The translations under genes were made by a program, and so were the position numbers. 64,000 nt of DNA, taken from assembly GCF_054482525.1 (NCBI RefSeq), contig NZ_CM137006.1; one strand, written 5' to 3'. The notes below the pieces were generated by a model. It had not been told where the DNA came from. It saw only the letters and a program-made list of their open reading frames with translations, and did not search any database. Position 1 is the stretch's first letter. Every line of letters begins with the position of its first letter. Shown one piece after another: positions 10,788-17,026 of this stretch.

Positions 10788-11198
10788 ATGGCTCAGGTTG
10801 CCATTTTTAAAGAAATATTCGATCAAGTGCGAAAAGATTTAAACTGTGAATTGTTTTATTCTGAACTAAAACGTCACAATGTCTCACATTATATTTACTA
10901 TCTAGCCACAGATAATATTCACATTGTGTTAGAAAACGATAACACTGCGTTAATAAAAGGACTTAAAAAGGTTGTAAATGTTAAATTCTCAAGAAATACG
11001 CATCTTATAGAAACGTCCTATGATAGGTTGAAATCAAGAGAAATCACATTTCAGCAATACAGGGAAAATCTTGCTAAAGCAGGAGTTTTCCGATGGGTTA
11101 CAAATATCCACGAACATAAAAGATATTACTATGCCTTTGATAATTCATTACTATTTACTGAGAGCATTCAGAACACTACACAAATCTTTCCACGCTAA
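10788..11198 (+). CDS. DUF1398-family phage protein (ybcV-like)
   Basis: 136-aa product from [31 protein letters not shown]...; track ORF trimmed to Met42; alternative start Met28 possible. Confidence 0.6.
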
Positions 11199-11489
11199 AT
11201 CATAACGTCCGGTTTCTTCCGTGTCAGCACCGGGGCGTTGGCATAATGCAATACGTGTATGCGCTAAACCCTGTGTGCATCGTTATTAATTATTCCCGGA
11301 CACTCCCGCAGAGGAGTTTCCCTGTCAGGGCTGCGGACATAGTTAATCCGGGAATACAGTGATGATCCTTCGCATCTGACATACATTAATAAATATTAAC
11401 AATATGAGATTTCAACTCATTGTTTAGGGTTTGTTTAATTTTCTACACATACGATTCTGCGAACTTCAAAAAGCATCGGGAATAACACC

Positions 11490-11783
11490 ATGAAAAAAAT
11501 GCTACTCGCTACTGCGCTGGCCCTGCTTATTACAGGATGTGCCCAACAGACGTTTACTGTTCAAAACAAACCGGCAGCAGTAACACCAAAGGAAACCATC
11601 ACCCACCATTTCTTCGTCTCTGGAATTGGGCAGAAGAAAACTGTCGATGCAGCTAAAATTTGTGGCGGCGCAGAAAATGTTGTTAAAACAGAAACCCAGC
11701 AAACATTCGTAAATGGATTGCTCGGTTTTATTACTTTAGGCATTTATACTCCGCTGGAAGCGCGTGTGTATTGCTCACAATAA
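11490..11783 (+). CDS. bor: Bor outer-membrane lipoprotein (serum-resistance moron)
   Basis: 97 aa, MKKMLLATALALLITGCAQQTFTVQNKPAAV..., lipobox LITGC; reads as lambda Bor; opposite strand to lysis genes as in lambda. Confidence 0.92.
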   Translation: MKKMLLATALALLITGCAQQTFTVQNKPAAVTPKETITHHFFVSGIGQKKTVDAAKICGGAENVVKTETQQTFVNGLLGFITLGIYTPLEARVYCSQ

Positions 11784-11814
11784 TTGCATGAGTTGCCCAT
11801 CGATATGGGCAGCT

Positions 11815-12276
11815 CTATCTGCACTGCTCATTAATATACTTCTGGGTTCCTTCCAGTTGTTTTTGCATAGTGATCAGCCTCTCTCTGAGGGTGAAATAAT
11901 CCCGTTCAGCGGTGTCTGCCAGTCGGGGGGAGGCTGCATTATCCACGCCGGAGGCGGTGGTGGCTTCACGCACTGACTGACAGACTGCTTTGATGTGCAA
12001 CCGACGACGACCAGCGGCAACATCATCACGCAGAGCATCATTTTCAGCTTTCGCATCAGCTAACTCCTTCGTGTATTTTGCATCGAGCGCAGCAACATCA
12101 CGCTGACGCATCTGCATGTCAGTAATTGCCACGTTCGCCAGCTTCAGTTCTCTGGCATTTTTGTCGCGCTGGGCTTTGTAGGTAATGGCGTTATCACGGT
12201 AATGATTAACAGCCCATGACAGGCAGACGATGATGCAGATGAGCAGAGCGGAGATAATCGCGGTTAATCTGCTCAT
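11815..12276 (-). CDS. Rz: Spanin inner-membrane subunit Rz
   Basis: 153 aa, [40 protein letters not shown]..., reads as lambda Rz. Confidence 0.9.
11874..12056 (-). CDS. Rz1: Spanin outer-membrane lipoprotein Rz1 (embedded in Rz, +1 frame)
   Basis: 60 aa, [40 protein letters not shown]..., proline-rich lipoprotein wholly inside Rz. Confidence 0.85.
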
Positions 12277-12749
12277 ACCTCAATCTCTCTGACCGTTCCG
12301 CCTGCTTCTTTGAATTTTGCAATCAAACTGTCAACCTTATGCTCGAACTGACCATAACCAGCACCCGGCAGTGAAGCCCAGATATTGCTGCAACGGTCGA
12401 TTGCCTGACGAATATCACCGCGATCAATCATCGGTAAAGCGCCACGCTCTTTAATCTGCTGCAATGCCACTGCGTCCTGGCTATTGGGGGAAAAGTCTTT
12501 CAAACCAAGCTGTTTACAGTAAGCATCCCACCACCGGGAAAGAATCTGGTAGCGTCCAGCAGCCGTTGATTTAAGTTTTGGGTTTAGCGTGACAAGTTTG
12601 CGAGGATGATCGGAGTAATCAGTGAATAGCTCACCACCTACAATAACGTCGTAGCCGTGATTGCGGGTTGGCTGTCGCCCGTTATCCGTTCCTTCTGACC
12701 ACGCCAACATATCGAGGAAAGCTTTACGCTGAGGATTAAGATTTAGCAT
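12273..12749 (-). CDS. R: Endolysin R (lytic transglycosylase)
   Basis: 158 aa, ...[46 protein letters not shown]..., reads as lambda R. Confidence 0.92.
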
Positions 12750-13041
12750 TTTTCACCCCTGTCAGTCGTTCCCAGAAGTATGTCAGTGCAACCGAACCCA
12801 TCGCACCACTAATCCCCGCTGTCGCGAGAATCATGTAAATACTGAATCCACTTTCGATACTGATCAGGCCACCAATAACACCGGTGAATCCCGACACCAC
12901 TATCTGAGCCAAAGCATTTATCCAGCTCCACGTTGCTTTACTCTGCTTCACATCTATCAGGTAGCGGACCAGACCGCCCCAACCTGCGATGATCAGCAAA
13001 ACGAGCCAGAACGCTCCGGCAAGGCTCTCTTTTTCGTGCAT
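12736..13041 (-). CDS. Holin, class I-like with three predicted TM helices, not of lambda S type
   Basis: Position immediately upstream of and overlapping R; three hydrophobic segments plus charged C-terminus; first ATG is Met5 of the track ORF (track start is TTG). Confidence 0.6.
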   Translation of the reverse strand: MHEKESLAGAFWLVLLIIAGWGGLVRYLIDVKQSKATWSWINALAQIVVSGFTGVIGGLISIESGFSIYMILATAGISGAMGSVALTYFWERLTGVKNAKS

Positions 13042-13260
13042 ATGAATAGCCAATGTTTCGCCGCCGACAAAAGGCCGGGACGTTAAATGTCAGAAATCAG
13101 GCTCACGGGGTAATTTAACGACAAAGCACGGAGTTGATGCTCCCCGCAAGCCTGGAATAAAAAAGCCAGCATGTAGCTGGCAACAGAGGGTTAAGCAATA
13201 TCAACTCAACAGCTGAAGACACCCTGGCTGGGGTACGTTGGAAGGATACTCACCGCCCAG

Positions 13261-13296
13261 AAACAGAAAAGCCCAAGGCTTTAAACCTCGGGCTTG
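13261..13296 (-). terminator. Intrinsic terminator (tR'-like) of a short late leader transcript
   Basis: Minus-strand hairpin AGCCCGAGG-loop-CCTTGGGCT (9 bp with one G-U) followed by CTTTTCTGTTT. Confidence 0.45.
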
Positions 13297-13350
13297 AATT
13301 TGGATTACTGCCAGTGCGTACAACATTGGCAAAATATCAGATTTACATAA

Positions 13351-13379
13351 AATATATGATTTTTAATCCAGTTTTGCAA
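13351..13379 (-). promoter_or_regulatory. Candidate late promoter (pR'-like): -35 TTGCAA, 17-bp spacer, -10 TATATT
   Basis: Sigma70-like hexamers with 17-bp spacing at the 3' end of the Q-like gene, about 50 nt upstream of the hairpin terminator. Confidence 0.4.
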
Positions 13380-14052
13380 TATCTTGCTGTGAAAATGTGG
13401 TCTTTTGTTTTGAACGTGTTTTCGTTAAAAGCAATAAAGCTTGGCTATCAAGCTGTAGAAAAATGTGCTTCATTGCAACCCAGCGTTCAGTAAATGTCTC
13501 AGACCAGTTTTTTGATGTCACTCCCACCAGTGATGCCAACTCCTGGTATTCATAGGTCTTACGCCCTGCCAGCTCGTTCTTCACATCCTGTGCCGCCAGC
13601 CAGATCAACTTCTTCAAACGTTCCAGTGTCTTACCTGCAATTTTCCTGGTACCCAACAGAGTCTTAAACTCGCTCCATGCCCACTGCGTTATGGTGACCT
13701 GATGTTCCCAGCGAACACTTTCGCTGTAACTCCACAGCAACCACGCTTTCTGATGTTCTTCGAGAGACAGAACCGCGCGGCGCCATGATGATGTTGAGAA
13801 CTCGATCGGACTGACCAGGGCAATGGATGAGCCTTTCGCCCGTGACTGCTTACCGGGTATCGGCGGATTATCCAGCGTTATTAACCTGCCGGTCACTTCA
13901 TCCAGAATGCGCGGTTTCTTTCGTTTGTATGTACCGGTATCAAATTGCGCATGCTCCTGCCAGGCCACCAACTGCCCTTTCGTCGCACCACTCAGATCGG
14001 CGGTGGCCACCATGAGCTGCTCGCGAACAAACTGTAAATATTGGGTATTCAT
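13363..14052 (-). CDS. Putative late-gene antiterminator (Q-like), 229 aa
   Basis: Assigned by position between rusA/nin and the late promoter/lysis cassette; not similar to lambda Q; no family match recalled. Confidence 0.5.
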   Translation of the reverse strand: MNTQYLQFVREQLMVATADLSGATKGQLVAWQEHAQFDTGTYKRKKPRILDEVTGRLITLDNPPIPGKQSRAKGSSIALVSPIEFSTSSWRRAVLSLEEHQKAWLLWSYSESVRWEHQVTITQWAWSEFKTLLGTRKIAGKTLERLKKLIWLAAQDVKNELAGRKTYEYQELASLVGVTSKNWSETFTERWVAMKHIFLQLDSQALLLLTKTRSKQKTTFSQQDIAKLD

Positions 14053-14185
14053 GCGGCCGCTCCTTTCAGTGTTTTGGCGTAATTTTTCAGTATTCGGTAA
14101 TCAGTCACGACAGAACCGGAAAACCGGTACAACCGCAGGCGCATCCAGCGAAGGCGGAGGTGTTCTGTGATATAAGATTCAAACG

Positions 14186-14548
14186 TCATTCGCCCTCCAG
14201 TTCTGTAATGGTCAGCTCCAGCTTCCCGCCTTTAACGATCGGCATCTTCACAACGCGGTAATCAACAACCTGCGCATCATCCAGCCAGAAACCTGCTTTA
14301 GTAAGTGCGTCAAAAGCGGCTTTTTGCAGATTATCCAGGTCACGGCGACGGCGATCCGGCATGTGGCACTCAATGCGGATTTTCACTGGCATAGCCAGGC
14401 CGATATCCAGCATGGAGCCTTTGATGATTCGGGCGACGTTATCGCGGTATGCTTGCCCCTCTGCGCTGATGTGCGTGCGCCCGCGATTATGGCGGTAATA
14501 GCGATTATTGCTCGGAGGCCAGGGTAATGTGATGCTGTAGGTATTCAC
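14186..14548 (-). CDS. rusA: Holliday-junction resolvase RusA
   Basis: 120 aa, [43 protein letters not shown]..., reads as RusA. Confidence 0.92.
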
Positions 14549-14835
14549 GCCTTAATAACCCCCTCTTTCAGCCAGATAACCTGTGTTCTCGCCATACCTT
14601 CCAGCGCGCATTCTTTTGCATATCCAGCGTCAACAAAATGCGTGCGACGGTCGATCTCGTCGTGACAGGCAGAACATGCAATGGTGGCAATAAGGTCTGG
14701 CGGTTTAATACCGGTGCCGCACAATCCAGCCAGCCGGATATGTGCCAGTACAGACGTTTCAGAATTGCCATTACATACGCCAGGGATTCTTACCTGGCAT
14801 TCCCGACCACGCGCTGCTTTTCTCAAATCAGCCAT
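14545..14835 (-). CDS. DUF1364-family nin-region protein (ybcO-like)
   Basis: 96-aa product from [24 protein letters not shown]...; Cys/His-rich; ATG overlaps the ninE stop (ATGGCTGA). Confidence 0.75.
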
Positions 14836-14998
14836 GACTCCTCCTTGCTGCCAGTCGCAACCATTTTTTATCAACCAGGCTGGCGGTATATCCGAGCAGT
14901 GTTGGTATTTCGGATGGCTTCAGCTCAGGCTTACGCTTACGACGATTTGGTACTCTGTAGATGTGTCCGTTCATGACACGAATAAGCGGTGTAGCCAT
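14828..14998 (-). CDS. ninE: NinE-like protein (56 aa)
   Basis: Hand-translated [56 protein letters not shown]; basic and NinE-like; below the 60-aa track cutoff; start overlaps ybcN stop (TAATG). Confidence 0.65.
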   Translation of the reverse strand: MATPLIRVMNGHIYRVPNRRKRKPELKPSEIPTLLGYTASLVDKKWLRLAARRSHG

Positions 14999-15453
14999 TA
15001 CGCCTCCTGCTTGTCGCGCAGCAGCTGGAACTCGCAGCTCTGCGGAATAGTCAGGTTGCAGCCAATATTCATCGCCCAGGCTTCAACCTTACACAGGAAG
15101 ACATACATCTCTCCGGTATCAAGATCGGAGGTATGGCGTAACGACTGGATAGTAGTGATTTCGCCGGTTACGACATCAACCAGGTCCTTGGTTTCATAAC
15201 CGAGGTATGTGTGTTTGAGAGCATCTTTTACCCATGCTGCGGTAGCGAACGATTTCCCCCTGCTGATGAGGTATTCACTGATTTCGCTGTACCACATATG
15301 GCTGAGTGCATTCTGGGAAAGACTGCGTTTCTCTCGCCACGGTTTAAGCACCATGCGAAAGCATTTGCCTTCCTCCAGATAAGGCTGGATCTGCTGGCCG
15401 ATAGCGGTGAAGTTGCCGCGATGTAATTTGATGCCGTCTTGTGAGAGGTTCAC
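14998..15453 (-). CDS. Nin-region protein of the DLP12 YbcN type
   Basis: 151 aa, [45 protein letters not shown]..., recalled as YbcN-like. Confidence 0.8.
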
Positions 15454-15667: not shown

Positions 15668-16465
15668 TTACTCTCTGGAAGCTTTTCTTATCTCTCTTGG
15701 TGTTATATTAAAACGATTATGAAATCTTTCAGTAAAACGAGAAGGACACTTATAACCATTTTCTCTGGCAATCTCGCTTATAGGTTTTACCGTCGTTTGT
15801 ATAGCAGACAACGCATTATTTAACCTCACATCGTCCAGTATACTTTGGAAACTTACCCCCTCGCTTGCTAGACGGCGATGTAATGTAGAAACAGAAATGT
15901 AGAGATATCGTGCAACCTTGTTTGCTGTCCATTTTGTGCCGGGTTCGGATAGCAGCAGGCTATAACAACGACTTATCAATGATTGTTTACTATATGATAA
16001 AAGTAAATGATTAACATGATTCACTCCTAACGAAAGTAGAACGCCCATTGCTAAGTGTTCCTGAATTTTAGTTGAGAAGCCTCGGGAAACAGATGTTTTT
16101 AGTTGCTCCCAACAATATATTAACTCAGGATTCTGAGGTAAAAAGAAACTTGTTTTGTTACGTATTTGATCAGTTACCGTATAAAGTTTTTGGAAACTCT
16201 CAATTAAATCAATGGGTAAGTAAAGCATTTCTGCAAGATAAAGCCCTGCTTCAGGATAATTCTCAATATAAAATTCATAACCACAAGGAAATAATATTAT
16301 TTGATTATTATCAACAGTTAAAGTATGCGTCTCCCAATTGATAACTTTCTTTCCCTGACGGATACGACACAAAGCTGGCATAAGAGGCTTAACCCTATGA
16401 ATCTCATGATGTTTATGCATTCGTATTTCTTCGATCTTTAAGTTAGTCTTACCTCTTGCCAGCAT
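15668..16465 (-). CDS. AraC/XylS-family transcriptional regulator (ybcM-like), prophage cargo
   Basis: 265 aa with C-terminal AraC-type HTH (...[39 protein letters not shown]...); AT-rich gene. Confidence 0.85.
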
Positions 16466-16474
16466 ACTCTCACC

Positions 16475-17026
16475 CTACTTTATCTCATAAACTGGTGTTA
16501 TCTCAGCGGTTGCGATTTTATTAGCATTAAGCATATAACCAACTAACGCTCCGCTGGAGTTAGAATCTACAGGAATCTTTTCAGTTTTTAGAGCCCATAC
16601 TTTAAACTGGTAATGATGTGGTTTATCTCCTTTAGGAGGACATGCGCCACCAAACCCAGCATAGCCAAAATCATTTCGGCCTTGAACAGCACCAGTCGGC
16701 AGTTTTGTTCCATCACGTCTCCCTGCATCAACGGGCAAATATGTTACTGTTGCTGGAATATTAACAACAGTCCAATGCCACCAACCACTGCCTGTAGGTG
16801 CATCTGGATCATATACAGTTACGGCAAAGCTTTTGGTACCTTCAGGAACACCAGACCAGGTTAATGAGGGCGATGTATTACCACCTTCACACCCAAATCC
16901 AGAAAAGACATGAGACGTTGTAAGTTGCTCTCCTGTTTTTATTTCATTACTAGTGACCTGAAATGCTGCAGCCTGCGCAGAAAATGTTATGAATGCCAAT
17001 ACAGTTGAAACGATAAGTGTTTTCAT
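16475..17026 (-). CDS. Periplasmic PEBP/YbhB-family protein (ybcL-like) with signal peptide
   Basis: 183 aa, N-terminal signal peptide MKTLIVSTVLAFITFSAQAAAFQ; PEBP-like motifs (DPDAPTGSGWWHW, GYAGFGGACPPKGDKPHHYQF). Confidence 0.85.
   Translation of the reverse strand: MKTLIVSTVLAFITFSAQAAAFQVTSNEIKTGEQLTTSHVFSGFGCEGGNTSPSLTWSGVPEGTKSFAVTVYDPDAPTGSGWWHWTVVNIPATVTYLPVDAGRRDGTKLPTGAVQGRNDFGYAGFGGACPPKGDKPHHYQFKVWALKTEKIPVDSNSSGALVGYMLNANKIATAEITPVYEIK

Follow-up and report, generated by a model that had tools for sequence, protein, structure and literature searches.

Sequence comparison places a widespread gene-13-type holin with a degraded dual-start motif ahead of lambda-type lysis genes in Escherichia coli

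The gene that fills the S position of a lambda-like lysis cassette in the stretch of DNA analysed here (64,000 nucleotides in full, referred to below as the window) is, as judged by sequence comparison, a known and widespread holin of the type represented by gene 13 of phages ST64T, PS3 and L. It precedes R, Rz, Rz1 and bor of the lambda type and carries at its 5' end the remnant of an ancestral dual-start motif. The functional product is probably the 101-aa protein that starts at the ATG at position 13041, encoded by an allele without a built-in antiholin, a reading to which we would assign a probability of about 0.75.

Organisation of the lysis cassette

The cassette is encoded on the minus strand and reads, in the 5' to 3' direction, Q, a non-coding stretch of 309 nt, the holin ORF, R and Rz, with Rz1 embedded in the latter (Table 1). 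A preliminary description of this DNA, made from the sequence letters without database searches, had read R, Rz, Rz1 and bor as lambda proteins, which their amino acid identities with the lambda proteins bear out, and had presented the holin as swapped while the remaining lysis genes stayed lambda-type. This latter claim stands in so far as a non-lambda holin is found before lambda-type R, Rz/Rz1 and bor; in comparison with lambda, however, Q and the late promoter/terminator region are also non-homologous, and blastn revealed no similarity between the lambda Q region and Q of the window.

Table 1. Features of the lysis cassette and of its leader in the window
Feature	Position	Strand	Basis or remark
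Holin CDS from ATG, 101 aa	12736..13041 (ATG 13041, stop 12736)	-	PF16083 / PHROG 785
Endolysin R (transglycosylase), lambda-type	12273..12749	-	93.0% aa identity to lambda R
Rz (i-spanin)	11815..12276	-	98.0% aa identity to lambda Rz
Rz1 (o-spanin lipoprotein), inside Rz, +1 frame	11874..12056	-	98.3% aa identity to lambda Rz1
bor (serum-resistance lipoprotein)	11490..11783	+	99.0% aa identity to lambda Bor
Late antiterminator Q, 229 aa, PF06323	13363..14052	-	not lambda Q
Remnant of upstream start, four in-frame codons TTG GCT ATT CAT	13042..13053	-	comparison with homologues
Predicted leader hairpin, 9 bp, one bulge, pairs GGCGG	13059..13082	-	per-sequence folds
Holin/R overlap, 14 nt (12736-12749), and mosaic junction	12732..12749	-	homology to lambda
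Putative late-promoter region	13165..13379	-	promoter and two terminator-like hairpins; function predicted

A scan against NCBIfam gave no meaningful match for the holin, R, Rz, Rz1 or Q; CrcB came up for the holin below threshold (16.6 bits against a cut-off of 101) and was rejected. A separate antiholin gene was sought and none was found, the gap between Q and the holin containing only one 43-aa ORF with a TTG start, which overlaps the terminator-like hairpin at 13295-13269. The loci of sister alleles (L014 1046-1381, L017 2576-2971 and L019 799-1272) possess an additional ORF (111-157 aa) in the interval from Q to the holin; it has no Pfam match and is absent from the window. At some homologous loci tRNAs are present between Q and the holin, unlike in the window, in which a tRNA scan found none.

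Family assignment and relatives of the holin

Profile searches, proposed in the preliminary description as a means of classifying the gene, assigned the holin to the LydA-type Pfam family PF16083 (Phage_holin_3_3; 77.6 bits, with the cut-off at 28.4; E=8.2e-22; match to positions 2-78 of the 78 in the profile) and to PHROG 785 'holin' (E=5.5e-40), and not to PF05106, the Pfam family of lambda S. PF16083 was likewise carried by 120 of the 120 holin homologues among the matches listed. The three transmembrane domains (TMDs) described earlier for the S-position protein were recovered by hydropathy analysis (Kyte-Doolittle) as hydrophobic segments at approximately residues 7-25, 41-61 and 66-90 of the 101 aa. 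The loop that follows TMD1 and the C-terminal tail are both basic (R, K, K in each), and this positive-inside distribution points to a class I topology, N-out and C-in. Compared with three other E. coli copies, the coding sequence has 0 nonsynonymous and 5-8 synonymous differences, which, along with the Pfam and PHROG scores, argues for a real gene and not a chance ORF. The pN/pS ratio is 0-0.04 among the E. coli alleles and 0.035 to the sister allele (see below), values that show, at the level of the coding sequence, purifying selection on the holin.

The nearest phage relatives outside E. coli, as found by tblastn, were the holins of Klebsiella prophages (84-86% identity), followed by gene 13 of the P22-like Salmonella phages (Lederbergvirus) ST64T, PS3 and L, with 72-73% amino acid identity over the full length (105/105; tblastn E=6e-44); further relatives were detected in Serratia phage Eta (64%) and Hafnia phage Meifeng (53%). 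The gene 13 products of ST64T, PS3 and L resemble the window holin in belonging to PF16083 and PHROG 785, in having three TMDs and in being encoded directly after the late promoter region, and those of ST64T and PS3 also share with it a 14-nt overlap with the start of the endolysin gene (gp19 in these phages, R in the window). They differ in possessing a dual start, M-A-K-R-M, behind GGAGG and in having as partner the M15-peptidase-type endolysin gp19, whereas the window has an upstream TTG, I-H in place of K-R, the Shine-Dalgarno (SD) sequence GGCGG and lambda R as partner. The classical lysis mutation of phage L, 13-am43, is an amber at codon 50 of gene 13 (PMC8022706). It proves genetically that the phage L gene has a role in lysis, bears indirectly on the window holin and is the best experimental anchor for the family.

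LydA of phage P1, the type member of PF16083 and of the LydA family in TCDB, belongs by HMM to the same Pfam family as the window holin. It was, however, absent from the tblastn matches of the latter at E<=1e-5, and the relationship is therefore remote. In P1, the antiholin is encoded by a gene of its own, LydB, and the endolysin is of the SAR type (PMC9025707); in contrast, the window has no separate antiholin candidate and a soluble endolysin.

Comparison with lambda S

In the preliminary description the S-position protein had been called unrelated to lambda S, and a diverged holin of the S105 family had been named as the alternative. The latter was tested in three ways, all of which spoke against it. 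BLASTP of the window holin against lambda S gave E=8.6; in a reciprocal Pfam scan at E<=1, neither protein matched the model of the other; and hhalign, run with a 21-sequence alignment of the holin family against a 16-sequence alignment of lambda S, returned a probability of 2.4%, with an aligned stretch of 15 residues confined to the C-terminal tail. The term 'unrelated' is best understood as applying to detectable sequence similarity only, because Pfam naming puts PF16083 and PF05106 in a nominal 'holin superfamily III'. The C-terminal segment aligned by hhalign reads ...TG-V/M-K-N-A-N-Q in the holin family and ...AG-V-D/E-D-A-N-Q-Q in the lambda S family, and corresponds to the part encoded by the holin/endolysin overlap (window 12736-12770, minus strand); the match could stem from a junction sequence common to both families that serves in the exchange of modules, and not from protein homology.

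In common with the window holin, lambda S (S105 holin and S107 antiholin) has the same position in the cassette, a similar size, three TMDs, an overlap with the start of R, an acidic N-terminus and the class I N-out/C-in topology that is predicted for the window holin, and both have R, Rz and Rz1 as partners. The predicted leader hairpin at the SD of the window recalls the sdi structure of lambda. Unlike lambda S, the window holin has neither a second ATG nor a Lys between the candidate starts, and for this reason no S107-like antiholin is expected.

The upstream TTG codon and the dual-start motif

The 5' end of the holin gene reads TTG GCT ATT CAT ATG CAC GAA AAA, i.e. (M/L)-A-I-H-M-H-E-K, on the minus strand, with the TTG (13053-13051) in frame and four codons upstream of the only N-terminal ATG, as had been read previously; in the sister allele, GCG is found at that site. 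We surveyed the N-termini of 120 listed database cluster representatives, in 84 of which the called N-terminus reached the motif region. Two Met residues with at least one Lys/Arg between them, M-x(1-3)-M (for example MAKRM, MKRM or MKM), were found in 82 of these 84 representatives with a readable N-terminus, and the two exceptions were E. coli 'A-I-H' alleles. The N-termini of phage homologues are MAKRM (ST64T, PS3, Klebsiella), MAKHM, MKRM (Eta, the holin record of which is annotated 'possible dual start motif'), MTRM and MRM (Meifeng), and GGAGG precedes the first ATG by 5-7 nt. Since the motif is present in all readable representatives except the E. coli A-I-H alleles, the dual start is ancestral in the holin family and degraded in the E. 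coli clade. In the window allele, ATG has been replaced by TTG, K and R by I and H, and GGAGG by GGCGG. The caution of the preliminary description, that a lambda-like dual start cannot be concluded, was right, and the allele is a degraded copy of an ancestral dual start.

Three alleles were distinguished in E. coli, and their frequencies are estimates from leader-type BLAST classes, the codons having been read in a handful of loci: the window-type allele, with upstream TTG and SD GGCGG, was seen in phage PhiR47_2 and four sampled genomes and accounts by leader type for ~800 genomes; the sister allele WP_000544527.1, with one residue different, an upstream GCG and an intact GGAGG, was seen in two sampled genomes and accounts for ~130; and a rare allele, with upstream ATG, A-I-H and SD GGCGG, was read or annotated in two loci and accounts for 3. 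The sister allele thus has no in-frame upstream start. None of the three alleles retains the basic residues. Only the rare one still has the upstream ATG, which each of the two common alleles has lost in its own way. Upstream codons 2-4 are identical across the three, although a stretch of 9 nt is not statistically informative.

In lambda, the S107 antiholin differs from S105 only by an extra N-terminal positive charge, which blocks the insertion of TMD1 into the membrane, and an S105-only phage lyses 5-10 min earlier (PMC6116005). In the window allele, Lys/Arg are absent from the extension between the starts (A-I-H), and the long form adds no positive charge, its N-terminus having a net charge of -1 as in the short form, whereas in homologues the charge is -1 in the short and +1 in the long form. 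The TTG-initiated form, if made at all, should act as a holin and not as an inhibitor; still less conventionally, an uncharged TTG-initiated isoform could be made and have some other role.

As for the annotation of the start, PGAP uses the ATG in every E. coli genome sampled, whereas the depositors of PhiR47_2 annotated the TTG start, under the name 'holin/antiholin component S'. A literature search by the RefSeq accession, the PhiR47_2 accession and the phage name found no study of the window allele, the one match concerning a sibling phage only. RefSeq/PGAP often starts holins of the family at the second Met (99-101 aa) despite an upstream ATG with GGAGG (loci L002, L003 and L019), while other pipelines call the first Met (103-105 aa); with the start called at the second Met, the dual-start motif becomes invisible in many RefSeq protein records.

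Leader and late-promoter region

The GGCGG element (13065-13061) is situated 7 nt from the TTG and 19 nt upstream of ATG 13041, and is paired in the predicted leader hairpin. The energy of its duplex with the anti-SD was calculated as -5.0 kcal/mol, compared with -9.5 to -12.2 kcal/mol in the homologues. When folded sequence by sequence, every homologue leader forms an equivalent hairpin, in which a pyrimidine run is paired with the SD (GGAGG). A covariation test with nine homologous leaders gave a weak consensus of 6 pairs and -1.74 kcal/mol, with a poorly aligned 5' arm, and the leader hairpin, predicted from per-sequence folds, is suggestive. ATG 13041 has no SD at a workable distance, GGCGG being the only purine-rich element; the spacing of this element fits the TTG better than the ATG. 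Both points speak against initiation at the ATG.

Further upstream, a sigma-70-like promoter, TTGCAA-17-TATATT (13379-13351, minus strand), is followed by hairpins resembling intrinsic terminators at 13295-13269 and 13181-13165. The gap between Q and the holin has, in this respect, the layout expected of a Q-antiterminated pR'/tR' unit, and would presumably function as such. A search of positions 11000-14500 against Rfam found nothing above the gathering score. Below the threshold, isrJ, an Hfq-binding sRNA of Salmonella, matched positions 13268-13347 on the minus strand (30.4 bits, gathering score 37, E=0.007), a stretch that coincides exactly with the first terminator hairpin and the start predicted for the late transcript. 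This raises the possibility that sRNAs like isrJ are short leader transcripts (pR'-tR') made by lambdoid prophages, in the manner of the 6S RNA of lambda.

Mosaic junctions, partner endolysins and alternative cassettes

Identity to lambda at the DNA level is 95% over the part of the window that extends from about 12732-12744 to position 11400 or beyond. The homology begins at the holin stop codon, at around codons 5-7 of R. The N-terminus of R is MLNLNP in the window versus MVEINN in lambda, and the start codon and first codons of R travel with the holin module. At the opposite end, similarity between the window and further E. coli prophages, which differ from it in their upstream genes, starts at ~13072-13086, 20-30 nt before the TTG. 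The junctions at this point and at the holin stop delimit an exchangeable unit of ~350 bp, comprising the leader hairpin, the holin and the endolysin start. Independent shuffling of holins and endolysins is textbook lambdoid mosaicism, and the holin has probably been joined to the lambda-type R-Rz/Rz1-bor by modular recombination at the overlap of the holin stop and the R start.

The endolysins that accompany the holin family across its relatives are of at least five types, namely lambda R (window), M15-type peptidase (ST64T), GH24 lysozymes (RAH1 and Eta), GH108 with a PG-binding domain (KPP5665-2) and GH19 (Meifeng). An N-terminal hydrophobic (SAR or signal) segment was found neither in R of the window, in which the maximal 17-residue hydropathy was 0.03 (segments starting within the first 45 residues), nor in any of the five partner endolysin types, which points to a canonical large-hole holin.

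In the closest relatives over 25 kb, the slot is filled by a cassette of the DLP12 or phage 21 type (essD pinholin, rrrD SAR endolysin, rzpD and borD). These relatives share with the window the flanks with Rz, bor, ybcV and ybcW on one side and ylcG, rusA, ybcO, ninE and ybcN on the other; between them, the DLP12-type slot contains quuD, a porin gene as an insertion, a pinholin with two TMDs and a SAR endolysin, whereas the window has the 229-aa Q, a three-TMD holin and lambda R. The different block between shared flanks indicates that Q, holin and endolysin swap together as alternative cassettes. The alternative blocks compared were positions 12273-14052 of the window and 12274-15229 of relative L018.

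Distribution and prophage setting

From the ATG onwards, the holin is 100% identical to RefSeq WP_000544528.1, 'phage holin family protein', which occurs in O157:H7 SS17, an ST131 strain and others. Among 5,426 complete E. coli genomes, 803 contain the leader, holin and R start with a coverage of >=80%. The block Q-holin-R-Rz-bor is 94% identical to that of Escherichia phage PhiR47_2, the record of which names E. coli C as host and which has the same holin allele. The prophages with WP_000544528.1 and PhiR47_2 have the same leader and the same TTG as the window, with lambda-type R/Rz/bor downstream; nothing material is different between the WP_000544528.1 loci and the window, and the surrounding DNA is 96-98% identical. 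In PhiR47_2 (PV340567.1, L001 3305-3780), R is annotated as two CDS, with a 1-nt deletion in a C run relative to R of the window; either the homopolymer was misread in sequencing or the endolysin gene is truly frameshifted.

A full lambda-like set of head and tail genes is located upstream of the cassette, as judged from homology to an annotated relative. As in DLP12, moron-like cargo separates the replication region from the nin region, at window positions 15668-17026 (minus strand): ybcM encodes a 265-aa regulator of the AraC type, and ybcL a 183-aa periplasmic protein resembling Raf kinase inhibitors. Chromosomal DNA (phoQ, purB, icd, lolE and pepT) takes up positions 25001-50000, with ~98.5% identity to the best complete E. 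coli genomes. Given these genes in the chromosomal half of the window, the prophage, DLP12-like in its genes, appears to be integrated near icd and not at the DLP12 site of K-12.

Discussion

Based on the above comparisons, we propose that Q-antiterminated late transcripts would start from the promoter at ~13351-13379 and pass the two terminators into holin-R-Rz/Rz1. The 101-aa protein, started at ATG 13041, would span the inner membrane by its three TMDs in an N-out, C-in orientation, build up and then trigger with the formation of large holes; through these the R transglycosylase, which is soluble and has no signal sequence, would escape, and the outer membrane would be disrupted by the Rz/Rz1 spanin. 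A functional dual-start antiholin would not be produced, the ATG having changed to TTG and the basic residues to Ile and His, and the upstream SD being weakened and, by prediction, buried in the hairpin. The start usage, topology, hole size and timing of the holin in this scheme are what we infer.

It is conceivable, although in our estimation rather improbable, that TTG 13053 is used beside the ATG and that two products form a holin/antiholin pair like S107/S105 of lambda. TTG is a legitimate bacterial start codon, it is placed 7 nt from the SD-like GGCGG, it is the start in the annotation of PhiR47_2, and the holin family ancestrally starts first at exactly that position. However, M-A-I-H has no Lys/Arg and so lacks the charge that makes S107 inhibitory, the SD is weaker than in homologues (-5.0 vs -9.5 to -12.2 kcal/mol) and held in a 9-bp hairpin, and the GCG sister allele, with no upstream start and a near-identical protein, persists in ~130 genomes, which shows that the upstream start is dispensable in the E. 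coli clade. The several changes gathered in the start region might alternatively be read as pseudogenisation, the holin then being a decaying, non-functional remnant of a cryptic prophage, and many genes are indeed common with the defective DLP12 (ybcL, ybcM, ybcN, ninE, ybcO, rusA, ylcG, ybcV and ybcW). We regard such decay as very improbable because the intact ORF is under constraint (0 nonsynonymous vs 5-8 synonymous differences; pN/pS <= 0.04 to the sister allele), the identical allele is present in phage PhiR47_2, and the window has the full lambda-like head and tail gene set upstream.

Two further explanations concern the kind of holin, and both strike us as scarcely credible. If it were a pinholin, it would only depolarise the membrane and form no large holes; nothing specific favours this, apart from the essD/rrrD pinholin/SAR-endolysin pair at the equivalent position of DLP12-type relatives. 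Pinholins work with SAR endolysins, and those of the S21 type typically have two TMDs, whereas R and the five partner endolysin types are devoid of an N-terminal hydrophobic segment and the window holin has three TMDs. If it belonged to the lambda S (S105) family, as a member that had diverged strongly and had one conventional start, the same gene position, the length of 101 aa vs 105 aa, the three TMDs, the similar acidic N-termini (MHEKES vs MPEKHD) and the common Pfam name would find an explanation; against this kinship speak the BLASTP value, the lack of any cross-match between the Pfam models, the hhalign probability with its 15 C-terminal residues, and the close full-length relatives of the holin in a separate, well-populated family. 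We therefore retain the reading of a canonical, gene-13-type holin translated from ATG 13041.

The holin is already catalogued and the cassette is an ordinary lambdoid mosaic. About one complete E. coli genome in six has the gene, and its family became known with the work on PS3, ST64T and L; what is mildly new is confined to the decay of the dual-start motif in this one clade. Public start annotations are in conflict, with TTG in PhiR47_2 vs ATG in RefSeq, and the comparative data favour ATG; in dual-start relatives, RefSeq often trims the true first Met.

Concerning the origin of the allele, we consider the chances roughly even that the E. coli A-I-H clade represents a natural 'S105-only' experiment, in which the built-in antiholin was lost stepwise after linkage to the lambda-type R. 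The basic residues would have been lost first, and then the upstream ATG in two ways (TTG in ~800 and GCG in ~130 genomes), leaving the ATG in ~3 genomes. If this is true, a large share of the lambdoid prophages of E. coli, including some in O157:H7 and ST131, would time lysis without an antiholin, perhaps through a strengthened leader hairpin that sequesters the SD. A widespread natural allele without the dual-start motif offers a ready test of the share that the antiholin has in lysis timing and fitness outside lambda.
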